Source: a virus (lineage: Duplodnaviria; Caudoviricetes). Taken from it: 64,000 bases of DNA. Under the pieces are notes generated by a model, which made no database searches, was not told the origin of the DNA, and saw only the letters and a list, made by a program, of their open reading frames with translations. Positions 13,529 through 55,908 of the stretch are shown one piece after another. Both the position numbers and the translations under genes were made by a program. Location: positions 55,896 to 119,895 of IMG/VR virus record IMGVR_UViG_3300028903_000001, one strand, 5' to 3'. Within the stretch, counting starts at the first letter, position 1; each line of letters starts with the position of its first letter.

Positions 13529-14928
13529 AGCCTTCTCCACGTCTTAGGGATCACGATCTTGCCTCGCCGCCGGATCGGGTTTGGTGATATCTGCCAGGTC
13601 TTACCGCCGATGTAGGGTATCTTGGTGTCTGCCTTTCGCATGCCCATGCTCTTAGGCAAGTCCTCGTACAGGCTTCGCGGCGAGCCAAATTGTTGCTTCT
13701 GCTCATAGCTCAGCATCTCGACTCGCAGCCCGGCCTTCTCCGCAATGTCGAAGACGAGAGCCAATGCGTCGTAGTAGAACCTCTCGACAAACGGCTGCAT
13801 CACGTCTAGCGCGGCATGAATCTTCTCGTCGGTGAGTCCCTTCGCCTTAAGTCGGCTTTGAAACTGTTCGTCGCTAAGCCCCTTGCGAACGATGGGAAGG
13901 TCGCTCTGCACCTCCTCGACGAGAATCGATTCTTCTGCCAAAATTATGTGTGAGTACCTCACCCAGCCGATAGTGAAGAGACCGAGTTTCAGCACGGGAT
14001 GCGAGGAGCGATACGACACGTCTCGAATCGCTTCAATCGTATTGAGCACTTCCGGCTCGTCACTGACCAATGCCGGGTCGATGTTGAGTTGCAGCACGTT
14101 GTTGGGATAGGTGCTAAGTCGCTGAAGCTCCGAGGTCCACTTCGTCTCGGTAATCTGCCAAGTCATGCCGTAGCTATCGATTAGCTTCTTCGCCGCATCG
14201 GGCGTCAGCGTACCGCCACCTATATCGTGCTTGACCGTCTCGAATGCATCGGGGAAGGTTCGCTTGAAGGCGGCAATCTTCATCGGCTCGGTGACCTTGG
14301 CTAGCGCCTTAGCGCCTGCTCGCTTTCTGCCATAGACTGTCTTGGGCCCGATCTTATTTGGCTCCAGAATGGTTCCGGTGAGGTTCGCGCCCTCAAGGTT
14401 CGCTTCACGGAGGTTCGCGCTAGTAAGGTCCGCGTGATACAAGTCCGCTCTGGTGAGGTTCGCTCTGGTGAGGTTCGCTCTGGTGAGGTCCGCGTCGGTG
14501 AGGTTCGCGCCAGTGAGGTTCGCGTCGGCGAGGTTCGCGCGAAAGAGGTTCGCTCCGGTGAGGTTTAAGTTATGGAGGTCCGCGTCGGTGAGGTTCGCGC
14601 CAGTGAGGTTCGCGTCGGTGAGGTTCGCTCCGGTGAGGTTCGCGCCAGTGAGGTCCGCGTCGGTGAGGTTCGCATCCTCAAGGTACGCTCCGGTGAGGTT
14701 CGCGCCAGTGAGGTCCGCGTCGGTGAGGTCCGCGCCAGTGAGGTTCGCGCCCACAAGAATTGCGTTGGATAGATCTGCCTCGGCAAGGTTGACCCCGCGC
14801 AGGTCAGCCCCGGTGAGGTCTGCCTTAGCCAGATTAGCTTGTTCGCCTCCCTGCTCATAGCCTTCCCTCCAGAGTCTGTGCAGCCTCACTATCTCGCCTA
14901 CCTGCTCCTTGGTAACTTTTCGGCTCAT
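13525..14928 (-). CDS. Pentapeptide-repeat protein fused to a VEEVQSD-motif domain
   Basis: About 30 A(D/N)LT(G/D/R) repeats; C-terminal IGWVR...ILVEEVQSD. Confidence 0.8.
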   Translation of the reverse strand: MSRKVTKEQVGEIVRLHRLWREGYEQGGEQANLAKADLTGADLRGVNLAEADLSNAILVGANLTGADLTDADLTGANLTGAYLEDANLTDADLTGANLTGANLTDANLTGANLTDADLHNLNLTGANLFRANLADANLTGANLTDADLTRANLTRANLTRADLYHADLTSANLREANLEGANLTGTILEPNKIGPKTVYGRKRAGAKALAKVTEPMKIAAFKRTFPDAFETVKHDIGGGTLTPDAAKKLIDSYGMTWQITETKWTSELQRLSTYPNNVLQLNIDPALVSDEPEVLNTIEAIRDVSYRSSHPVLKLGLFTIGWVRYSHIILAEESILVEEVQSDLPIVRKGLSDEQFQSRLKAKGLTDEKIHAALDVMQPFVERFYYDALALVFDIAEKAGLRVEMLSYEQKQQFGSPRSLYEDLPKSMGMRKADTKIPYIGGKTWQISPNPIRRRGKIVIPKTWRRL

Positions 14929-19925: not shown

Positions 19926-19975
19926 CTCGTCCTCCTTGACCCCAGGGTCAAGTCGTGCATTTTGATCAAGTACAG

Positions 19976-20048
19976 CGTCCCCGGCAGGACTCGAACCTGC
20001 AAATTGCGGTTTAGGAAACCGCTGCTCTATCCATTGAGCTACGGAGAC
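19976..20048 (-). tRNA. tRNA-Arg(CCT)
   Basis: Reverse complement GTCTCCG-TAGCTCAATGGATAGAGC-A-GCGGT-TTCCTAA-ACCGC...GCAGG-TTCGAGT-CCTGC-CGGGGAC-G forms a full cloverleaf; no encoded CCA. Confidence 0.92.
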
Positions 20049-21129: not shown

Positions 21130-21148
21130 CCTCGTTTTGGAGTCTAGT

Positions 21149-22117
21149 ATGTCTAACACCTACATCGTAAAGCCTGACTCGAGCGCCGCGCTCGCGACCG
21201 ACCTCGAGGATCTTGCGGACCAGGCCAAGGACTTCATCAAAGCTTCGAAGTCGAAAGCGACGCGCACAGCTTACAGGTCGGACTTCGATGCCTTCACCTC
21301 GTGGTGCCGGGAACACGTTCTGGTGTCGATCCCGGCGAGACCCGAGACAGTGGCGATGTACGCCGCACACATGGCCCGCGAGGGGCTCGGCGTGTCGAGT
21401 GTCCAGCGAGCCATGGCGGCGATATCGCAGGCGCACAGAATGGCCGGAATCGAGTCGCCAACCCAGGCATCCGTGGTGAGGGAAACCGTCCGTGGCATCC
21501 GGCGCAGCCTCGGCGTGAAGCCGAACAAGAAGGCCCCCGTCACGATCGACGAGCTTCGAAAGATGGTCGCGACTCGCCCACAGACCCTGCTCGGCCTGCG
21601 AGACCGCGCGCTGCTTCTGCTCGGCTTCAGCGGCGCGTTTCGCCGCTCCGAGCTTGCCGCGCTCGACCATGCCGACCTGGATTTTGTCGCCGAGGGCGTC
21701 GTCGTCACGGTGCGTCGCAGCAAAACCGATCAGGAAGGCGAGGGGCTCGAGAAGGCGATTCCCTACGCCATGGACCAGACCATGTGCCCGGTCCTTACGC
21801 TTCAGTCCTGGCTCGACGCGGCTGGAACGAGTGATGGTCCCGTGTTTCCGAGCATCGATCGCGGCGACAACCTGTCTGGACGCATGAGCGACAGGGCCGT
21901 GGCAAGGACCGTGCAGAGAGCCGCGAGGCGCGTCGGTCTGGACCCGTCCAGATTCGCGGGGCACAGCCTCCGAGCCGGGTTTGCCACATCGGCCATTCTC
22001 GCCGGGAAATCGGAGGCAGATACGATGCGGCAGACCGGGCATAGGAGTATTGCCGTTTTCAGGGGTTATGTTCGAGTCGCTAATCTGTGGAAGAGTAATG
22101 CGTCTAAACTGCTTTGA
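21149..22117 (+). CDS. Tyrosine recombinase (Cre/Xer-like)
   Basis: FRRSEL (R), RSKTDQ (K), GHSLRAG (HxxR), TGHRS (H) and RGYVR (Y) are all intact. Confidence 0.95.
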   Translation: MSNTYIVKPDSSAALATDLEDLADQAKDFIKASKSKATRTAYRSDFDAFTSWCREHVLVSIPARPETVAMYAAHMAREGLGVSSVQRAMAAISQAHRMAGIESPTQASVVRETVRGIRRSLGVKPNKKAPVTIDELRKMVATRPQTLLGLRDRALLLLGFSGAFRRSELAALDHADLDFVAEGVVVTVRRSKTDQEGEGLEKAIPYAMDQTMCPVLTLQSWLDAAGTSDGPVFPSIDRGDNLSGRMSDRAVARTVQRAARRVGLDPSRFAGHSLRAGFATSAILAGKSEADTMRQTGHRSIAVFRGYVRVANLWKSNASKLL

Positions 22118-22162: not shown

Positions 22163-23094
22163 GTCTCGACAAGCAAGATGTCGAGCTACTACTGCCACAC
22201 GGGATCCGTGTTTCCTAGTTGATCTGTCACTCATGGGTCTCGACAAGCAAGATGTCGAGCTACTACCGCTACACTCGTCAAGCAGTTGGGACCTTGAGTT
22301 GGAGTGGGAGTCTCGACAAGCAAGATGTCGAGCTACTACTGCTACACGCCAGATAGGCCTCAGCGCGATCGTCAAGACCAAGGTCTCGACAAACAAGATG
22401 TCGAGCTACTACCGCTACCGCTGATGCAGACAAGCGTTTGACTGCGGCAAAGGAGTCTCGACAAGCAAGATGTCGAGCTACTACCGCTACCGGCTCGTCG
22501 CTCCCAGGGCGCGGCGCAACCAGGCTTGACAGGTCACGGCTCGACCCTGGTCTCGACAAGCAAGATGTCGAGCTACTACCGCTACCGCGCCTCGGTGAGG
22601 TATTTGCGGGAGACGACGCCGGGTCTCGACAAGCAAGATGTCGAGCTACTACCGCTACGATGACGATGGGGCGCGTCGCCATCCGAGATTGCCGCATGTC
22701 TCGACAAGCAAGATGTCGAGCTACTACCGCTACTTAGAGACGTCTTCGCCTCGGGCGACCCGGAGAACGTCTCGACAAGCAAGATGTCGAGCTACTACCG
22801 CTACGACCGGGTTCGAATTTCGCATCGAGGGCACCTCTCTTGTCTCGACAAGCAAGATGTCGAGCTACTACCGCTACAGGACAAAAAGGGGCAACCGAAG
22901 CCGGCACACCCGCCGTCTCGACAAGCAAGATGTCGAGCTACTACCGCTACGTCGGGCAGGACGATCAAGATCCCATCGACGCGATTGTCTCGACAAGCAA
23001 GATGTCGAGCTACTACCGCTACCATCCCGCTACCCACCTGGAAGGCGCTCGGCGAAATGTCTCGACAAGCAAGATGTCGAGCTACTACCGCTAC
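22163..23094 (-). CRISPR. CRISPR array 1: 13 repeats, 12 spacers
   Basis: 36-bp repeat (+ strand GTCTCGACAAGCAAGATGTCGAGCTACTACCGCTAC) with unique 35-39 bp spacers and one of 59 bp. Variant repeats cluster at the low-coordinate (trailer) end. Confidence 0.97.
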
Positions 23095-23273
23095 GAGTCT
23101 GGCAGGACGCTCGCAATTTCGACGGGTTACAGCACGACTTGCGAGCGGTCCTCCAAGCCTACTGTCTCGGATCAATTTTCAACGACCAGGATCGGCGTAG
23201 TGCCGCAGATTCTACCTCATCTCTGAGGCTTTCGAGCGGTCCCAGCGGTTTCGGGACCACCCAGGCGCTCGCG
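23095..23273 (-). promoter_or_regulatory. CRISPR leader, copy 1
   Basis: 179 bp, 4 mismatches to 24527-24705; abuts the first repeat. Confidence 0.85.
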
Positions 23274-23843
23274 AAGCTTCTCGTTCTCCTTTTCCAAACT
23301 CCTGACCCTTGCCTTCAGTGTCTTGTTCTCAGCCCTAAGCTCCCTATTCTCCCTGGACAGTTTATCGAACAGGTTCTCCTTCTGGGGCTTGACCCTAACC
23401 TCGGGGACGTAGTGCTTTCGGACTATCGACGCTGCGCTCCACGAACTCGGCTCTTTACCATTCCTGACTCGAAACTCAATGAGTTCTGCCATGGCAGATC
23501 TTGTTGCCAGACCGTGTACGGATCTTGACGGAGCATCGGGAGGAATGATGAGCAACTTCTCTGCCGCAGGGATACCTATCTTACGAATGTTGTCAATGCC
23601 GCCACACAACTCGACACAAAGTTTGAATCTCGCAAACCTTGTTGGCTGGGCAAGGTCACTCACATGGAGCACCTCCACAAATGTGGCCCACCCATACCTA
23701 CCACCTACACCACTCTTCCATGCCGATTCGTTCTTTTCGAACCTGACGAGACCAGCCATGAAGTCAACCCCGGCCTCGGAGTATGCGGTCCTTAGCGCCT
23801 CGCACTCCTTTACGAGCGCATCAAATCTCTTCTTGGTCGCCAT
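23217..23843 (-). CDS. Unknown 208-aa protein between the two arrays, with C-terminal coiled coil
   Basis: GAGGTG RBS and ATG; heptad LSRENRELRAENKTLKARVRSLEKENEKL; the last codons run into leader copy 1. Confidence 0.75.
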   Translation of the reverse strand: MATKKRFDALVKECEALRTAYSEAGVDFMAGLVRFEKNESAWKSGVGGRYGWATFVEVLHVSDLAQPTRFARFKLCVELCGGIDNIRKIGIPAAEKLLIIPPDAPSRSVHGLATRSAMAELIEFRVRNGKEPSSWSAASIVRKHYVPEVRVKPQKENLFDKLSRENRELRAENKTLKARVRSLEKENEKLRERLGGPETAGTARKPQR

Positions 23844-23876: not shown

Positions 23877-24526
23877 TGTCGAGCTACTACCGCTACAAAG
23901 TCGAATTGCGCGGAGATATCGTCCGTCGCGTGTCTCGACAAGCAAGATGTCGAGCTACTACCGCTACATCTCGCGTCATCGGCTTGCTGGCTCGGCAGTT
24001 CCACGCGGTGCTCCGTCTCGACAAGCAAGATGTCGAGCTACTACCGCTACGGTCTCCATATAGACCGGCACGAAATACGAATCGATGTCTCGACAAGCAA
24101 GATGTCGAGCTACTACCGCTACCGAATTCGGTCGATATCGGTGCGATTCTTGGCTGGCGTCTCGACAAGCAAGATGTCGAGCTACTACCGCTACCCCCAA
24201 GCTCACACCTGTTGCACAGACCGTGATGTTCGTCTCGACAAGCAAGATGTCGAGCTACTACCGCTACCTGGCGTCTCGACAAGCAAGATGTCGAGCTACT
24301 ACCGCTACAATGGGACAGACGAGGGCGGCAGGACGATGCAGCGGTCTCGACAAGCAAGATGTCGAGCTACTACCGCTACGATCGGATCGCGGAGGCCCGC
24401 GTCGCTGAGTGGTTGGCCGTCTCGACAAGCAAGATGTCGAGCTACTACCGCTACTGCGCTGGCCCGTGCCGTTGCGCAGTTTGACGCGCTGTCTCGACAA
24501 GCAAGATGTCGAGCTACTACCGCTAC
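23877..24526 (-). CRISPR. CRISPR array 2: 9 full repeats plus a degenerate terminal repeat, 9 spacers
   Basis: Same repeat at 23932, 24015, 24087, 24159, 24232, 24273, 24344, 24419 and 24491; half repeat at 23877-23896. Spacers are 35-39 bp plus one of 47 bp and one of 5 bp. Confidence 0.97.
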
Positions 24527-24705
24527 GGGTCTGGCAGGACGCTCGCAATTTCGACGGGTTACAGCACGACTTGCGAGCGGTCCTCCAAGCCCACTGTCTC
24601 GGATCAATTTTCAACGACCAGGATCGGCGTAGTGCCGCAGATTCGACCTCATCTCTGAGGCTTTCGAGCGGTCCCAGCGGTTTCGGAACCACCCAGGCGC
24701 TCGCG
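24527..24705 (-). promoter_or_regulatory. CRISPR leader, copy 2
   Basis: Lies between the cas12-like stop and array 2; duplicate of 23095-23273. Confidence 0.85.
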
Positions 24706-24706
24706 T

Positions 24707-26674
24707 TTACTCAGCCGCGACGGCGAGCATCTTCTCCTGTCTCCTGATGATTTCCAACACTTCGTTTTGCTTCCCGTCATCGTTGAGCATGTTCAACAAT
24801 CTAACGTGGAATGTATCACGAGTCAGTCCGCAATGCGAGCAGGAAAACATATGCGCCTTCACATCTTTATTTCCCTTCTCGAGTCTGCCGCACCTGGGGC
24901 ATCTCACTGAGCTATTCTCGACACTGACCTTCTCATAGAACACTCCCCTACCTCTGGCGGCATTCTTGATGCATTCGCGAAAGATGCCTGGGGCCACGAT
25001 CTGGAGATTGGACCTCGACTTTTGTCTCTGCCTCTTACCAATCTCGCCCTCGCTCTTCTCTTCCTCTTTCTCCTTCTCCACTATCTGCTTGAAGTTGGTG
25101 CCGTCCACAAGTATTCGGGAGTACGTCCTCGCCAATCTGGCCGCGACGTTTCGATACGCATTGTTTCTTCTGCGTTTCGCCGTTTCATGCATACCCCCCT
25201 CAAAACGGTACAGATGCAGGTTCTGCTTCCTCCATGCCATCATTCTCTCGTAAATCTCTGCGTCACCCTCGAATCGATTCTTCTCCCACGTCGTGACTAG
25301 ATTGGCAAGCCGCCTTGGAGCCCTCCACTTTTGCATGCGAGCTATCGCCTGCTTTGATGTCGGTGTTCCATCGACACTCTTATCCTCCTCGTCATCGATG
25401 TCTCTTGCCGTAGCATTTCGCATCCACGCTGGCAGCTTATCGATCATGCTGAGCCAAGAGACTAGCTCCTTCATCGCCTTGTTGAAGTTGTCGTCCCTGG
25501 TGCGTGAGATCTCTTCCTTCCTTCTGAAGCTGGCGAAGATTCCGCTCCTGCCGCCGTCGCTCTCCACGTTGTATGGGCTCTGCACGCATCCCTTCCCACA
25601 CTCGATCTTTTCAACGATCTTGTCTCGAGACAGATCAAACACTCCGGTCTCCCCGTCCTCCGAGAGCCAATGCGCGACCCTGATCTTGTTGCCTTCCACT
25701 GCCCGCCATCCCAGCACTACGGCAACCGTGCCCCCTGCGGGCAGTGGCGGCTTCTCCGATTGCTTGTCAAGCTCTACCGTGATCTCACAGGACCAGCGCA
25801 GGTCTGGACCCCGCCTTCGCCTGGTAACGGTTACCCAGGTGATTCTCGAATTCGGTGGCAGCGGCCTATGAAGTATCATCGGCCACTTGGCTACGATGTA
25901 TTCGCTCTTTCCCCTGGCGGTCCCGGCGACTGCCATGGTCAGAGTAGTCCTTGCCGCACGCCTCCTGTCGCACCGTCTTTCCGAGGTGAGCGCAACCGTG
26001 TCAACCGGATCGATGATAGCTCTATGGTCGTTGCTAAAAATGTCAAGAGGGATTTTGCCCTTGCCGCCCTGTATCTGCACCGACAAAGACCCCTCACCTT
26101 TCCACCGTTTGAATTCAGGGTTGTTGTCCTCCCTCCCTTCGTACATGGGGACCTTGGAACTCTCAAAGAATGCCTTGTCCACAAGTAACTTCGTGCCCCA
26201 GAAAGCCGGGGAGTCGTGACTGGCCTGTCTCCTCATCCTCGCCGCGATACCGTTGTTCGGTGTCTTGTCCGAAAAAGCTTCGGCTCTTGTCTTTTTCTTG
26301 CCAGTGCTTTCCTTGCCATTGATCTCGAGCATGCGGGCCTTTAGCGCTGGCGTGGCCCTCAACTCCTTGATCCTAGCAATGAGTTTGGCGATCTTTTCAT
26401 CAATCGCCTCAACCTTTTCCGCGAACTCTTTGCTGGACCTGTCCTTGTCCGACTTGCCCTTGTAGAGCTTAGCCTTTTCCACGCCCAGGTCTTTGATTTG
26501 ACCCAATAGCTCTCGGATGCCGTACTCGTCTTCCGCTGCCCGCTTCAGATCCCTGACCTTGCACTCCACGCTCACTAGCTCATTTCTGTACCTATGCGCG
26601 TGCCACAACTGCTCTTCCACCACATCCGCGTTAAAAACCGGAGGCAAGAGCCCATATTTCATCACCAATGGCAT
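24707..26674 (-). CDS. Type V CRISPR effector, Cas12m (V-U1)-like, predicted nuclease-dead (~655 aa)
   Basis: N-terminal KYGLLPP...EQLWHAHRYRNELV, LHRPLP, RuvC-I VAVVLGWR, RuvC-II ILVDGTN, CPRC/CSHC Zn finger, RuvC-III RDTF; directly upstream of leader and array. Confidence 0.85.
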   Translation of the reverse strand: MPLVMKYGLLPPVFNADVVEEQLWHAHRYRNELVSVECKVRDLKRAAEDEYGIRELLGQIKDLGVEKAKLYKGKSDKDRSSKEFAEKVEAIDEKIAKLIARIKELRATPALKARMLEINGKESTGKKKTRAEAFSDKTPNNGIAARMRRQASHDSPAFWGTKLLVDKAFFESSKVPMYEGREDNNPEFKRWKGEGSLSVQIQGGKGKIPLDIFSNDHRAIIDPVDTVALTSERRCDRRRAARTTLTMAVAGTARGKSEYIVAKWPMILHRPLPPNSRITWVTVTRRRRGPDLRWSCEITVELDKQSEKPPLPAGGTVAVVLGWRAVEGNKIRVAHWLSEDGETGVFDLSRDKIVEKIECGKGCVQSPYNVESDGGRSGIFASFRRKEEISRTRDDNFNKAMKELVSWLSMIDKLPAWMRNATARDIDDEEDKSVDGTPTSKQAIARMQKWRAPRRLANLVTTWEKNRFEGDAEIYERMMAWRKQNLHLYRFEGGMHETAKRRRNNAYRNVAARLARTYSRILVDGTNFKQIVEKEKEEEKSEGEIGKRQRQKSRSNLQIVAPGIFRECIKNAARGRGVFYEKVSVENSSVRCPRCGRLEKGNKDVKAHMFSCSHCGLTRDTFHVRLLNMLNDDGKQNEVLEIIRRQEKMLAVAAE

Positions 26675-26701
26675 CGTGTTCCCCTTTCTTCTCTGCGTCA
26701 T

Positions 26702-27055
26702 CTACTGTCGAGCTACTACTGCTACCTCGAACAACTCTCCGACCGTCACTCCGGTCGTATAGCTCTCATACCTCTCACCAACCTCTGTGAGACTAGCAAG
26801 TCTGATTCCTTTTGGCCACTCAATTGTTTCGAGCCGAAACGATTTCTCTACCCTCGCCCACTTGTACAGCGAGCCGTCGGGCCAGCTATACTGATGCCTG
26901 TACTCGATACCGTTTTGCTCCAGAGTGGACTCGACGAGACGCTCGGCTAGTGACAAAACGAAGTCAGCCCTCGCCTCTCTGCCCATTTCTTCGCGCCCAG
27001 CTATGTTGAACAGGCCACTGTAGCTAAAGCTCATCGAGTAGTATCTGTAACTCAT
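26702..27055 (-). CDS. Hypothetical protein whose last codons (VAVVARQ) are encoded by the half repeat
   Basis: ATGA overlap with the exonuclease stop; 117 aa. Confidence 0.55.
   Translation of the reverse strand: MSYRYYSMSFSYSGLFNIAGREEMGREARADFVLSLAERLVESTLEQNGIEYRHQYSWPDGSLYKWARVEKSFRLETIEWPKGIRLASLTEVGERYESYTTGVTVGELFEVAVVARQ
26706..26725 (-). repeat. Orphan half CRISPR repeat upstream of the effector gene
   Basis: TGTCGAGCTACTACTGCTAC, identical to the corresponding part of the repeat variant at 22310. Confidence 0.8.
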
Positions 27056-27745: not shown

Positions 27746-29470
27746 TCACTTTTCGCTACCAGACGTTGCCAATGCAACGCCCAGTGCCGATGCATCCAAC
27801 AGGTTTCCCCGAAGGATGGGTTGATCTCCCAAAGCTCGCAGGAATATCCCGCGAGCGCCGTTGTAATCTCGATCCATTGACACGCCGGTCGATGCCGATC
27901 GGACAGTCTTTGCGCCACCAAGCTTGGCGTTGATCTCGCCGGTCCACGACACGGTCTTGCTCGTCCAAGCCTCGTTCTGGTCGAGCACGAGCTTGCCGTA
28001 CTCGAACGCCTTGTGCTTCAGGAAAGTCTTGAACCGATAGTGCGAGAACGTCAGCATGGATCGCACCGACTTCGCGCGAAGCCTGCGCGCCCCGCGCCGA
28101 ACCATCTCCGAGGTCTCGAACGTCGGCAGCACGATCACGTCGAAGCTCTTGACCAGAAACGCTGCCACCTTGTGGTGCAGATCGTCTACAAGGTTTCGAA
28201 TCCTGACCTGCATGCTCACGATAGCACGCCGAAGATTTCGCTTCCGAAGACGATGCGTCTCCAACCTGCGCCTCGAAATGAGGTCATCCATGTGCGAGCA
28301 CAACCGCTGAATCTTCCCGAAGTCGCCAGCACCAAGCTTGCCGCAACTGGACTCCGTGTAGAACGTTTGGAAGGATCGTATCCCTGGATCGAGAGCAACG
28401 ACGCGCCCTTGGTTTTCGGCTACGCACCGCTTTTGCTGCACGGGAACGATCAGAAACCACCGCCCTCTTTCGCAGACTAGCCTAAGATCGCAATGTTCCT
28501 TTGGTACCTCCTCGACCATTCGAAGCGCCCCTCGGGATAGAGTCGGGTAGACCCCACCGTTTCGAAGTGCGCTTTTGGGGATGTAGCAGGACTGCACCGG
28601 GTTCTTTCTCGACCTGAACCCGACGTCCTGAAAGCCTCCCCCCTCCTTGAATCTGCGCTTTGCCGCCGACACGGCTTTACAGGCATCGCGCACCGCCACT
28701 GACCTGATCTGGTAGGGCGTCTCCTCGGACCAAGCAGGGAGACCTCGCAGCAGCCCCGTCTTGATCGACTTCCAGTTCGCCTTCGTCCCCGGGGTCTTCA
28801 GAAAGCTCACGGCAGCGTTGAAGGCGACGCGCGCAGTCCCAAACCACTGTCTGAAGATGCTCTCCTGCTGCCTAGTGGGGTAGAGTCGGATCTTCTTTGA
28901 TTTGAGAAGCGTATCGTCGCAGCCCGTGCATTCGGCAAGAGAAGACGTGAATGATGGCGAGAAGATCGTCGGATAGCTCTCGCTCGGGGCTGTGTTCAAC
29001 TCGATCGAGAACCAAGAGTTCGCCACCGTTTTGCTCGAGCATGTGGGCGATGAGTTCGACACCAAAGCGGGCAAGGCGGTCCTTGTGGGCAACCACAACC
29101 GTGAGCTTTGCTCCTCATGCCAATCGGTCCAGTAGGGAGAGCAGTCCTTTACGCTTGAAGTTGAGACCACTTCCGATGTCCTTGACGATTTCGGCATCAG
29201 GGAAGCGCTGTCGCATGTAGACAACCTGTCTTGCGAGGTCGTCCTTTTGCTTCGGGGAGGAGACCCTGAAGTAGCAGATGGTGGCGGGGGGCAAGGCGTC
29301 TTTGACGAAGGACTCGACATCGAAGAGCCGCTGACCCGCAGGGTTTCTAACGTGTTTGATGAGTCCAGCATCAGCGTATTTCCGCACCGTATTGGGGGCA
29401 CATGCCGAGCGACTGGCATGCCATCCGTAGAGGGACGAGCTTTATGTCGTATGGTAGAGGACGGTGGCAT
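27746..29470 (-). CDS. tnpB: IS607 TnpB RNA-guided nuclease (true start uncertain)
   Basis: KIRLYPT HTH, ALDPG (D), PTFET (E), DRDYNGARGI (D); Zn-finger cysteines absent. Confidence 0.9.
   Translation of the reverse strand: MPPSSTIRHKARPSTDGMPVARHVPPIRCGNTLMLDSSNTLETLRVSGSSMSSPSSKTPCPPPPSATSGSPPRSKRTTSQDRLSTCDSASLMPKSSRTSEVVSTSSVKDCSPYWTDWHEEQSSRLWLPTRTALPALVSNSSPTCSSKTVANSWFSIELNTAPSESYPTIFSPSFTSSLAECTGCDDTLLKSKKIRLYPTRQQESIFRQWFGTARVAFNAAVSFLKTPGTKANWKSIKTGLLRGLPAWSEETPYQIRSVAVRDACKAVSAAKRRFKEGGGFQDVGFRSRKNPVQSCYIPKSALRNGGVYPTLSRGALRMVEEVPKEHCDLRLVCERGRWFLIVPVQQKRCVAENQGRVVALDPGIRSFQTFYTESSCGKLGAGDFGKIQRLCSHMDDLISRRRLETHRLRKRNLRRAIVSMQVRIRNLVDDLHHKVAAFLVKSFDVIVLPTFETSEMVRRGARRLRAKSVRSMLTFSHYRFKTFLKHKAFEYGKLVLDQNEAWTSKTVSWTGEINAKLGGAKTVRSASTGVSMDRDYNGARGIFLRALGDQPILRGNLLDASALGVALATSGSEK
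28872..29445 (-). pseudogene. tnpA: IS607 TnpA serine recombinase with an in-frame TGA
   Basis: PNTVRKYAD HTH, YFRVSS...DIGSGLNFKRKG, TGA at 29115-29117, then the same frame continues GAKLTVVVAHKDRLARFG. Confidence 0.85.
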
Positions 29471-42227: not shown

Positions 42228-42911
42228 TCATGAGTACGTCTTAGCCTCCTCGTACGTGGCAAACACATGGATTCCATGCGTACATTCCTCGCGGATGTCA
42301 TCGTTGTAATCGTCGGGCTCGATCCACTCGCCGAGGACGTAGCGGGTCATGACTGCATCACCGTGCGCGAGGTTTGCCCACTCCGTGCCCGGTGCGTCAG
42401 ACGCGATGACCTTGGCCCGCGCTACCCGGCACTTCCTCGACTGTAGACATGACGTGCGAGGCGCATCATGCGGCACGAACAGTGTCAGGACTGCACCTCG
42501 AACCTTTTTGTAGACCACGACGTGCCCGGTGTCGGGTAGTGCGTGATAATCTGGCAGCAGCGCCCCGCTCAGGTTGGCCCAGTACAGGTAGGCCCAGTAC
42601 AGGTTGGCCTCGTACAGGTTGGCCCCGCGCAGGTCGGCCCCGCGCAGGTCGGCCCCGCGCAGGTAGGCCCCGCTCAGGTTGGCCCCGCTCAGATTGGCCC
42701 CGCCCAGATCGGCCCCGCTCAGGTTGGCCCCGATCAGATTGGCCCCGATCAGATTGGCCTCGTACAGGTTGGCCCCGATCAGATTGGCCCCGATCAGGTT
42801 GGCCCCGATCAGATTGGCCCCGATCAGATTGGCCTCGTACAGGTTGGCCCCGATCAGATTGGCCTCGTACAGGTTGGCCGATGGCTCGATTTTGTACCCG
42901 TTGACGATCAT
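42228..42911 (-). CDS. Pentapeptide-repeat protein with DUF5758-like C-terminus
   Basis: [10 protein letters not shown] 15-bp repeats; RKCR...ECTHGIHVF. Confidence 0.85.
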
Positions 42912-44518: not shown

Positions 44519-45994
44519 TCAGCATTCCTGCGGCGACCCGGAACCCTCCCGTAGCGCCTCGGCCCAACAGTCTGCGAAACTCTCGGCCATTGCAGCGATC
44601 TGGTTCCAATCGGCGAGGTCGAGGGCTCCACGGCTTGCCCAGTCCACCATGCGTCGGCCCAGGTCTACGGCAGTACCGCTGACTAGCCTACGGTCAGGCT
44701 TGATGCCTGCGGCGTGGAGCCTAGCCTCGAGCAGCGGCACGAGCGATGCGCCACGGACCCTGGTTCCACCCCCAACGATCCACTCGACACTCGGCGGCTT
44801 GAAATCTGGATCTGGTTCCTTCACGAGCAATTGATTTTTTGTGAAAAAAATCTCCAGCGTCACAGATCCTGAGTGAGGAGAGGAACCTGAAGGAGAAAAG
44901 AAGATTCTCTTCTTTTCTTTTGGGGTCGAAACCGACCCCACAGTGTCGGTTCCGACATTCTCGGTGTCGGTTCCGACATTCTCGGTGTCGGTTCCGACAT
45001 TCTCGGTGTCGATTTTTTTGGTAGCAAACGTTGTGTCTACACGCTGATTCGAGCGAAATTTAGCCGACACTGCGGGTGTCGGTTCCGACATTCTCGGTGT
45101 CGGTTCCGACATTCTCGGTGTCGGTTTCGACACTGCCGATGTCGGTTTCGACACTGCGGGTGTCGCTACTTTTGCTGGCAATTTGGAACCGTTTTCTCGA
45201 CACGTTGTTGGTGTCGGTTCCGACACTGCCGATGTCGGTTTCGACACTTTCGGTGTCGCGAAACAGCGAGCAAGTTCGGGGTTCAGATTCGGAATTTCGC
45301 TTAGAATCTCACCGATTACCTCACCTACAGAGAGGTTGTTCGAAGTGGCGTAACTAAGTAACGATTCGTTATCTTTAGATGCCTGAAGTGAGTCATCGAT
45401 GACACAGTTGTTGGAACTAGTTGTATTCCTGATGTTTTTAGGTAGCGCAACACTGCGGGTGTCGGTTCCGACACTGCTGATGTCGGTTTCGACACTGCGG
45501 GTGTCGGTTTCGACACTGCGGGTGTCGGTTTCGACACTGCGGGTGTCGGTTTCGACACTCTTGGTGTCTCGTTTCTTCACCCTCTTTTTCATCCCAGGCT
45601 TCGGAGGTGGATCTTTTGGAGAGTCGTCTCGTCTAACTTCCCTTGACGAGGCTAGCTTCTTTCGCTGCCTGTATGTCTTACACTTGATGGTGTTGTCATA
45701 CACCGCTGACTGTGCCGATTCGAAATTGGGGATCTCGAGTGTATCGTTGCTGACGCAGATGCTTCCCCGATCAATTAGCATCTTGACATAGGGTCGAATA
45801 CTGTTGGGCTCAGCCTGTATCGCCTGCGCTATACCGGCAATGGCGTCTTCTCCAAGCTCAAGCCTACCGCCCGCGTCAACCTCTTGCAGAATGAGGGACA
45901 TGAGACCCCTGGCATTCCATTCGAGAGTGCGCCACTTCGGGCGACGATCTTTGTAGAGTCGAACCCATAGCGTCTTGGAATAGTCAAGCGGCAT
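44519..45994 (-). CDS. Putative replication initiator with internal iteron-like repeats
   Basis: N-terminal WVRLY...ARGL...wHTH-like region...IPNFESAQ; sits in the DnaB replication block. Confidence 0.6.
   Translation of the reverse strand: MPLDYSKTLWVRLYKDRRPKWRTLEWNARGLMSLILQEVDAGGRLELGEDAIAGIAQAIQAEPNSIRPYVKMLIDRGSICVSNDTLEIPNFESAQSAVYDNTIKCKTYRQRKKLASSREVRRDDSPKDPPPKPGMKKRVKKRDTKSVETDTRSVETDTRSVETDTRSVETDISSVGTDTRSVALPKNIRNTTSSNNCVIDDSLQASKDNESLLSYATSNNLSVGEVIGEILSEIPNLNPELARCFATPKVSKPTSAVSEPTPTTCRENGSKLPAKVATPAVSKPTSAVSKPTPRMSEPTPRMSEPTPAVSAKFRSNQRVDTTFATKKIDTENVGTDTENVGTDTENVGTDTVGSVSTPKEKKRIFFSPSGSSPHSGSVTLEIFFTKNQLLVKEPDPDFKPPSVEWIVGGGTRVRGASLVPLLEARLHAAGIKPDRRLVSGTAVDLGRRMVDWASRGALDLADWNQIAAMAESFADCWAEALREGSGSPQEC
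44943..45566. repeat. About 14 copies of a 21-bp unit (GTGTCGGTTYCGACAY...) in four blocks; candidate origin iterons
   Basis: Blocks near 44943, 45076, 45211 and 45459; palindromic core TGTCG-GTTY-CGACA. Confidence 0.85.
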
Positions 45995-55562: not shown

Positions 55563-55908
55563 TTAGTCCCCCTTTCGGTTTCTACTTCTCCTAGGCATGT
55601 CCACGACGTTAGTCACCGGCTCGTTTCGTTTCTCCGATAGAGCCTGCACCATAGTCTCCGCTCTCTCGAGGAGCTTGGCCAAGTATTCGGCTACCTTTCT
55701 CTGCTCGAGCCGGTTTCCCCTCGGCCTCGTCACCGTGACGAAGGGGATAAACTTCTCCACATTCTCGTAGCGGTTGAACTTCCGGCTACCAACGCTGATG
55801 CTAAACACGTCCCCCTTTCTCGCGACTTGCACGCAGATGTCTCGCATCGACTCTTCCGCATCCTTGTCTCGGATAACAGCGACAAGCTCCCATTGTTGCT
55901 GGACTTGA

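Follow-up and report, generated by a model that had tools for sequence, protein, structure and literature searches.

A phage-borne lineage of Cas12m predicted to lack both metal ligands of its RuvC site, with a co-inherited partner gene

What can a CRISPR (short palindromic repeats, clustered and regularly interspaced) effector do when two of the three catalytic positions of its nuclease site hold neither an acidic residue nor a histidine? The question is raised by one gene in a stretch of viral DNA (the window; 64,000 nucleotides (nt), positions 55,896 to 119,895 of the IMG/VR record IMGVR_UViG_3300028903_000001), which the original prediction took for a compact, fully dead relative of Cas12m. 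The gene product is probably the effector of a phage-encoded type V-M system, a CRISPR RNA (crRNA)-guided binder that would silence its targets without cutting them. The gene and the sites within it on which this reading depends are as follows.

24707 to 26674, minus strand: cas12m, 655 amino acids (phmmer against PDB sequences, AlphaFold2 model, Foldseek)
25865 to 25870, minus strand: His278-Arg279, the dyad of the WED domain (aligned to MmCas12m2 His269/Arg270)
25715 to 25717, minus strand: RuvC-I position, Val329 (GTG), motif AVVLGWR (alignments and codon read)
25103 to 25105, minus strand: RuvC-II position, Asp533 (GAC), motif ILVDGT (alignments and codon read)
24830 to 24901, minus strand: TNB zinc finger, CxxC...CxxC (C601, C604, C621, C624; Pfam PF07282, 1.1e-07)
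24809 to 24811, minus strand: RuvC-III position, Phe631 (TTC), motif RDTFHV (alignments and codon read)

The Cas12f1-like TNB domain (PF07282) is the only Pfam match in the protein, and NCBIfam gives weak matches to C2c8 and TnpB. Searched with phmmer, the best matches among PDB sequences are all Cas12m (23vw at 1.7e-37, 8pm4 at 4.2e-29 and 8hhl/8hio at 3e-17), and other Cas12 and TnpB families appear only at 8e-06 or worse. An AlphaFold2 model built with 87 homologues as input has a mean predicted local distance difference test score (pLDDT) of 91.3 and a predicted template modelling score (pTM) of 0.86. Foldseek matches it first to MmCas12m2 (8hhl_A, E 3.6e-26, TM 0.64/0.70) and second to GoCas12m (8pm4_A, E 5.8e-26, TM 0.66/0.71); four Cas12m entries lie at E 1e-22 to 1e-26, and the next match, a Cas12f, at 4e-09. 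A RuvC (RNase H) fold of the TnpB/Cas12 type, interrupted by the TNB zinc finger, is present. Judged by sequence and model together, the effector is a full-length Cas12m (type V-M), a single-effector CRISPR protein, and it retains the architecture of the family: WED, coiled-coil REC, RuvC fold, TNB zinc finger and His-Arg dyad. In MmCas12m2 this dyad (His269/Arg270) recognises the crRNA handle (PMC10442227). Within an alignment of 177 family members, comprising the query and proteins from two homologue searches, HR is found at the dyad in 170 and a CCCC zinc finger in 159.

The longest open reading frame (ORF) at the locus runs from 24707 to 26701 on the minus strand (664 amino acids), opening with an in-frame ATG at 26701 upstream of the start used above; residue numbers follow this longer frame, in which Met10 is the first residue of the 655-residue version. 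The true start is likely to be 26674 (Met10) rather than 26701, because close homologues begin MPLVMKY, because a Shine-Dalgarno-like AAAGGGG lies upstream of its ATG, and because the nearest relative, locus L005, has an in-frame TGA upstream. All three observations agree with the start called originally. The frame and zinc finger, predicted to be intact, are so: the frame is full-length, and the four Cys codons were read directly at 24899-24901, 24890-24892, 24839-24841 and 24830-24832.

In the phmmer alignments Val329 falls opposite the D of 23vw (AAIDLGWR) and the H of 8pm4/8hhl (AVHLGWR, ALHLGWR), Asp533 opposite the E of 23vw and the D of 8pm4/8hhl, and Phe631 opposite the second D of WDQD and YDTD. 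Asp533 is the counterpart of MmCas12m2 Asp485, and Phe631 that of Asp579 after correction for the two extra N-terminal residues of the 8hhl chain. The AlphaFold model sets Val329 in the middle of strand beta1, Asp533 at a strand end and Phe631 where the last RuvC helix begins; as modelled, each of the three residues is in its canonical RuvC position (I, II and III). By alignment and codon there is neither an acidic residue nor a His at RuvC-I or RuvC-III. The original prediction had named Val in place of D or H, and Phe in place of the DxD Asp, with codons two bases from an Asp codon; the alignments, the model and the codons (GTG and TTC, each two bases off GAY) agree with it on every one of these points. 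It had also counted the Asp at RuvC-II, in place of Glu, as beyond typical Cas12m, which is mistaken: this Asp is ordinary for the family, since H-D-D and N-D-D Cas12m carry Asp there. The triad V-D-F lies outside the published clade patterns (HEK/HQK, HDD, DED/NED, DND and NDD). The mismatch concerns the variant and not the family; the published triads are descriptive and already heterogeneous.

In MmCas12m2, His317 and Asp579 hold a single Mg2+ that contacts the non-target (displaced) strand (PMC10442227). As both equivalent positions are now Val and Phe, and only the RuvC-II Asp is left, the effector is predicted to be unable to perform metal-dependent RuvC chemistry. The same loss gives no prediction of lost pre-crRNA processing, because this processing is independent of the RuvC site in Cas12m (PMC10442227, PMC11013384).

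The altered site is shared by a lineage. At E <= 1e-3 an exhaustive homologue search returned 3,062 cluster representatives, and at E <= 1e-30 it returned 799. Triads in the 177-sequence alignment (a separate alignment holds 23 sequences) are D-E-D in 103, N-D-D in 14, H-D-D in 11 and N-E-D in 7, together 135, and the rest are degenerate mixtures; most ordinary Cas12m sampled have D at RuvC-III. In a midpoint-rooted FastTree phylogeny of 172 sequences and 600 columns, the window protein is a member of a clade (support 0.995; 32-57% identity) made up of 13 cluster representatives. The triads of these 13 are V-D-A (3), V-D-F (2), V-D-S (2), S-D-A (2), V-D-P, V-D-M, A-D-G and V-D-D (1 each). RuvC-II Asp is thus invariant in the clade, RuvC-I is V, S or A where the remaining family has D, N or H, and RuvC-III is F, A, S, P, M, G or, once, D. 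Such free drift at RuvC-III looks like loss of constraint at that position.

The clade is nested in a group of 31 tips (support 0.997) that also holds H-D-D, E-S-D, D-S-D, R-V-A, S-A-S, D-G-D and V-S-K triads. The characterised H-D-D proteins (Mm and Go) score below all 150 listed representatives against the query, so their H-D-D triad is not demonstrably the same event; the tree being midpoint-rooted, we infer rather than observe a direction from H-D-D to V-D-x. Two insertions are particular to the lineage, one at about residues 118-150 in REC and one at about residues 352-396 in RuvC. The latter carries an invariant (D/E)xDGG(R/K)GG loop between beta3 and alpha1.

Because 13 representatives from independent assemblies share V/S/A-D-x at this support, the altered triad is no sequencing error. 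About 120 columns are invariant among seven clade members at 44-57% identity, and the frame is intact; by this conservation the effector is under purifying selection. The original prediction had argued for each of these points from the single sequence, as well as for a possible distinct subclade, and the alignment and phylogeny bear it out. Its description of a fully dead DNA binder needs qualifying: the RuvC-I and RuvC-III ligands are indeed gone, but this is not a new activity class, since Cas12m with D-E-D, H-D-D and N-D-D sites already bind double-stranded DNA flanked by a protospacer adjacent motif (PAM) without cutting it, and block transcription or replication (PMC11013384, PMC10442227). 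Subtype V-M has also been described as showing ‘gradual inactivation’ of the RuvC site (PMC10691335), so the predicted dead state of this subclade is the far end of a known trend. V-M systems have been noted on plasmids and ‘some prophages’ (PMC11656645), and a phage Cas12m with a D-E-D site is described in a 2026 preprint. We found no description of a V/S/A-D-x clade that lacks both metal ligands, of its confinement to phage-like contigs or of a partner gene of its own.

This partner gene lies downstream of cas12m.

23217 to 23843, minus strand: accessory gene, 208 amino acids, its product with a helical domain at the N terminus and a leucine zipper at the C terminus

It is found directly downstream of cas12m in nine of nine lineage loci with DNA, namely the window, L005, L008, L010 (triad V-D-P), L011 (A-D-G), L012 (V-D-D), L013 (H-D-D), L014 (H-D-D, partial) and L020 (S-T-S), and gene calls of matching size follow cas12m in P0042 and P0043. 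The protein is 56% identical to that of L005 (L005:9988-10614) and 50% identical to that of L008 (L008:2793-3422). A hidden Markov model (HMM) of the family found it at none of 20 ordinary loci (D-E-D, N-D-D, N-H-D and D-K-D) with at least 700 nt downstream, and the family is scarce overall (8 clusters in 5.8 billion proteins). The accessory protein is, on this distribution, co-inherited with the lineage, and it probably acts with the effector or regulates it.

Pfam and PHROGs returned only coiled-coil noise for the accessory protein, a profile search of the PDB only leucine zippers, and Foldseek no match to its model. In the wide VIA-align comparison the N-terminal domain reached Z 7.3 with ParB (6s6h_B; root-mean-square deviation 9.1 over 129 residues) and Z 7.3 with Spo0J (1vz0_A; 3.6 over 107), both in the common range for helical models, and Z 4.8 with KorB (1r71), a value that helical models reach by chance; the modelled likeness to ParB, Spo0J and KorB is a lead only. 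An assignment to DUF3102, hinted at by Atlas (score 0.89-0.90), was dropped, as no HMM match backs it. The predicted complex of Cas12m with the accessory protein scored 0.28, below the mark of 0.32, and weighs neither way. According to a figure legend in PMC11656645, type IV and V-M loci of plasmids include a ‘transcription regulator’, which may overlap with the partner gene.

From the cas12m stop codon onwards, the minus strand holds a leader, array 2, the 208-residue ORF, a second leader copy and array 1.

24527 to 24706, minus strand: leader copy 2, 180 nt, starting directly after the cas12m stop codon
23877 to 24526, minus strand: array 2, nine identical 36-nt repeats (23932-24526) and a truncated 5' half-repeat (23877-23896)
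23095 to 23273, minus strand: leader copy 1, covering the last 57 nt of the 208-residue gene
22163 to 23094, minus strand: array 1, 13 repeats, three of them degenerate with 1-2 mismatches each

A duplication of 216 nt (24490-24705 and 23058-23273, 98% identical) includes the final 57 nt of the 208-residue gene. As cas12m and this gene abut in the relatives, array 2 is a secondary duplication inserted between them. The two arrays together have 22 repeats, 19 of them identical, and the degenerate repeats of array 1 are all among its four trailer-end copies at low coordinates, which indicates that the arrays are transcribed from the minus strand, like cas12m. The arrays hold 19 distinct spacers, from 35 to 59 nt in length. 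Two are over-long, at 59 nt (22491-22549) and 47 nt (23968-24014), and the others measure 35-39 nt; at 24232-24308 two repeats are only 5 nt apart, in a 41-nt tandem duplication.

The repeats of six lineage loci align without gaps. A stem of 6 base pairs near the 3' end is paired in 97% of cells, with compensatory changes in five of six pairs, and a pseudoknot of 4 base pairs between the 5' part and the loop is paired in 87.5%, with compensatory changes in all four. None of 500 shuffles reached this pairing and slid controls came nowhere close; in the window's own repeat two of the four pseudoknot pairs form. A crRNA with pseudoknot and stem has been shown in the structures of MmCas12m2 (PMC10442227) and PmCas12m (preprint).

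Further features of the repeats stand apart from this fold. Truncated repeats that retain only the 5' 20 nt occur on the minus strand at 23877-23896 and at 26714-26733, both breaking at ...CTCGACA; the latter matches at 19 of 20 nt and lies in the last codons of a 117-residue ORF just upstream of cas12m. It was considered as an autoregulatory repeat-like element and rejected, being missing at the equivalent place in five of five relatives. The truncated half-repeats are probably scars of repeat-mediated recombination. With up to 6 mismatches allowed, no anti-repeat, in the sense of a reverse-complement repeat copy, and hence no sign of a tracrRNA, was found anywhere in the phage, and the window's repeat was not found elsewhere in IMG/VR. 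The V-D-D relative L012 has two consecutive arrays with differing repeats (L012:6765-7524 and L012:7561-7741), the second of which is nearer the CTCGAC...GTCGAGAC repeat type of the other loci, and the six repeats of the H-D-D relative L013 (L013:6083-6488) are heterogeneous, with 76-100% identity.

The element that carries the locus is a temperate phage, given that its record is a complete virus record with direct terminal repeats (119,895 bp in IMG/VR, repeats of 127 bp) and that it has phage replication genes and an integrase. Genes near cas12m encode DnaB, a DUF5131 protein, a polymerase exonuclease subunit, helicases and an exonuclease, and the integrase is convergent on array 1.

21137 to 22117, plus strand: tyrosine integrase (Pfam Phage_integrase 3.7e-17, Phage_int_SAM_1 7.7e-05)

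Searches for Cas1, Cas2 and Cas4 matched the control genomes and found nothing in the complete phage genome of 119,895 bp. No Tn7 gene families were seen among the neighbours within ~10 kb, which are replication genes, TnpB, the integrase and unknown ORFs. In L005, a 69-kb contig, the order is DnaB, DUF5131, exonuclease, a 122-residue gene, cas12m, partner, array and integrase. An integrase also follows the array in L013, there on the same strand as cas12m, and is absent beside the locus in L010, L011 and L012. The order of the operon is kept across divergent phages with GC contents of 46 to 66%. The complete temperate phage, the two arrays next to cas12m, the lack of adaptation genes and the partner gene are the context of most weight, which the original prediction overlooked. 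The upstream exonuclease was considered as a Cas-associated trimming or processing nuclease and rejected, as it is a polymerase exonuclease subunit (phrog_192) that is also found in the replication module of L005.

Several other features of the phage and its relatives were noted. Two genes upstream of cas12m, a TnpB gene at 27746-29470 on the minus strand (HTH_OrfB_IS605, OrfB_IS605 and TNB; phrog_506 3e-38) is missing from the syntenic place in L005, which marks it as an insertion. Its D-E-D triad is retained (ALDPG, LPTFETS, MDRDYNGA), all four zinc-finger Cys are replaced (TSKTVSWTG...RSASTGV), and a Ser/Pro-rich stretch of ~185 residues at the start of the ORF is probably non-coding. A tRNA-Arg(CCT) gene (19975-20048, minus strand), situated ~1 kb away from the integrase, could belong to the attachment region or serve as a phage tRNA. 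Tandem repeats of 15 nt (about 21-23 copies, of pentapeptide type) lie inside ORFs at 14410-14750 and 42562-42879, the former within a 467-residue protein that matches phage repeat/tail-fibre PHROGs (phrog_7713 1.3e-50). A 491-residue ORF (44519-45994) contains, at 44943-45559, tandem repeats of 21 nt in four blocks; rich in GTGTCGG/CCGACAC palindromes, these are either heptad-coding or iteron-like sites. Elsewhere, the sole Cas12m-like match in 50,697 GenBank phage records is KX853510.1:112537-114162 of Virus Rctr197k (DAMO/anammox enrichment), with 25.8% identity and the annotation ‘similar to transposase’. In the V-D-P relative, L010:271-1005 encodes, ~3 kb upstream of cas12m and on the opposite strand, a protein that faintly matches Csf3 (type IV CRISPR). 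In a scan of a genome collection the one match was the known relative, placed in a ‘Parcubacteria’ metagenome-assembled genome, perhaps as a mis-binned phage contig.

The closest characterised systems are those of MmCas12m2 (8hhl/8hio) and GoCas12m (8pm4). They share with the phage system the fold and domain order, a length of ~600-650 amino acids, RuvC-II Asp, the His-Arg crRNA dyad, a 36-nt repeat with pseudoknot and stem, a single crRNA, the lack of adaptation genes and carriage on mobile elements. They differ in that identity is just 20-23% and in that Val and Phe here replace the Mg2+-binding His and Asp; the two lineage insertions, the partner gene and the phage (rather than plasmid or chromosomal) location are also unlike them, and the zinc finger of MmCas12m2 is HCCC, as against CCCC at the same position here. 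The D-E-D and N-D-D Cas12m (23vw, 23vu UnCas12m4a, MsCas12m and PmCas12m), of which 23vw is the best PDB sequence match, belong to the same family and are also non-cutting binders (PMC11013384, PmCas12m preprint), but retain an acidic or amide residue at each of the three positions, and none of their 20 loci examined has the partner gene. Cas12m ‘clade 1’ (HEK/HQK; Wu et al. 2022, as described in PMC10442227) has a non-acidic RuvC-III residue too, and its triads suggest that the family tolerates loss of the acid there. By that description it keeps His at RuvC-I and Lys at RuvC-III, whereas the clade here is small or hydrophobic at both. TldR and Cas12k are likewise naturally nuclease-dead derivatives of TnpB/Cas12 that bind under RNA guidance. 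TldR has ~350-450 amino acids, a single fixed guide, no CRISPR array and ties to particular host genes, in contrast to the 655 amino acids with REC insertions, two arrays and 19 spacers of the present system, none of which matches its own phage. Cas12k (V-K) works with the Tn7-like tnsB, tnsC and tniQ.

For the non-cutting, crRNA-guided silencer that the effector most probably is, the following course can be proposed. The two minus-strand arrays would be transcribed from the duplicated leaders, and the transcripts matured, independently of RuvC, to crRNAs with a pseudoknot-plus-stem handle. The ribonucleoprotein would bind PAM-flanked complementary DNA in a stable R-loop, and the bound complex would block transcription or replication of the target with no cutting. 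Expression would be from the prophage, and a phage or plasmid that competes within the lysogen is the probable target. Spacers would be acquired in trans, since the phage is without cas1, cas2 and cas4. The lineage would either manage without the Mg2+-mediated strand clamp or have replaced it. It is also conceivable, at a rather low likelihood, that Cas12m and the ~210-residue zipper protein form a two-protein RNA-guided silencing module, in which the partner, dimeric and perhaps a DNA-binding protein of ParB/KorB type, would be drawn to the R-loop or stabilise it, replacing the lost Mg2+ clamp or extending repression.

Some observations weigh against silencing by simple DNA binding. No protospacer was found for any spacer in the phage genome, GenBank phages, PLSDB or the fetched relatives. 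The array region gave no megablast match in GenBank phages or PLSDB plasmids, four PAM-proximal spacer seeds of 22 nt were absent from IMG/VR, and no cross-targeting was seen among the fetched relatives, where the sole 20-nt match is a conserved flank and not a protospacer. In addition, the H-D-D site of MmCas12m2 aids DNA binding, and D485A weakens binding and silencing (PMC10442227); by analogy, binding may be weaker or of another kind in a lineage that lacks the His and the third Asp. Finally, the (D/E)xDGG(R/K)GG loop of the RuvC insertion has an invariant Asp and lies where the model has pLDDT <50 (model residues 354-375).

That last point touches the possibility that the RuvC site is rearranged rather than dead, its carboxylates having moved as in TnpB clades, so that the protein still cuts DNA or RNA. 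Relocation with kept activity is documented in several TnpB/Cas12 branches (PMC10691335), and candidate carboxylates exist in the invariant Asp533, in the near-invariant Asp629, two residues before Phe631, and in Asp382, invariant in the Gly-rich loop of the clade. However, two of the three positions are gone at once, and the drift at RuvC-III resembles relaxed constraint, not compensation. Asp629 is no replacement, because it is conserved family-wide even where the catalytic Asp is present. Moreover, D-E-D Cas12m do not cut, and conversion of H-D-D to D-E-D restored no cleavage (PMC10442227, PMC11013384). A rearranged, active site is therefore improbable. At the opposite extreme, the protein might be a decaying, functionless remnant of a once-active Cas12m, as the loss of two catalytic-site residues and the variability at RuvC-III could suggest. 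This is highly improbable: the ORF is full-length in every member, with the many invariant columns described above, both the zinc finger and the dyad that binds crRNA are preserved, the repeats, whose stem and pseudoknot covary, are maintained perfectly, and operon order survives between phages of widely different GC content.

The effector could also serve the phage itself as a programmable regulator or recruiter, outside defence or competition, either by TldR-like repression of host or phage genes or by directing the zipper protein or the integrase to sites set by the guide. Strict co-inheritance of the partner gene would suit such a role, as would the integrase that adjoins the locus in the window, L005 and L013, and inactivated TnpB have been linked to tyrosine recombinases (PMC10691335). 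Yet no spacer has a match in the 120-kb genome of the phage itself (the best reach 15-19 nt), a variable array with 19 different spacers is what adaptive turnover typically gives and does not suit a fixed regulator, and the integrase is missing in three relatives. This role is unlikely, and silencing of competing elements without cutting remains the preferred reading.

Cas12m is under development as a compact, naturally nuclease-dead platform for CRISPR interference, base editing and epigenome editing. A conserved lineage without both metal ligands would imply that the Mg2+ strand clamp is dispensable or that its function has been taken over, and the lineage-specific loop and the co-inherited partner protein are candidates for such a takeover. 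The partner gene would be the first dedicated type V-M accessory factor that we have found reported. The locus adds a complete temperate-phage case with long arrays and no adaptation genes, and so bears on the use of non-cutting CRISPR systems against rivals.

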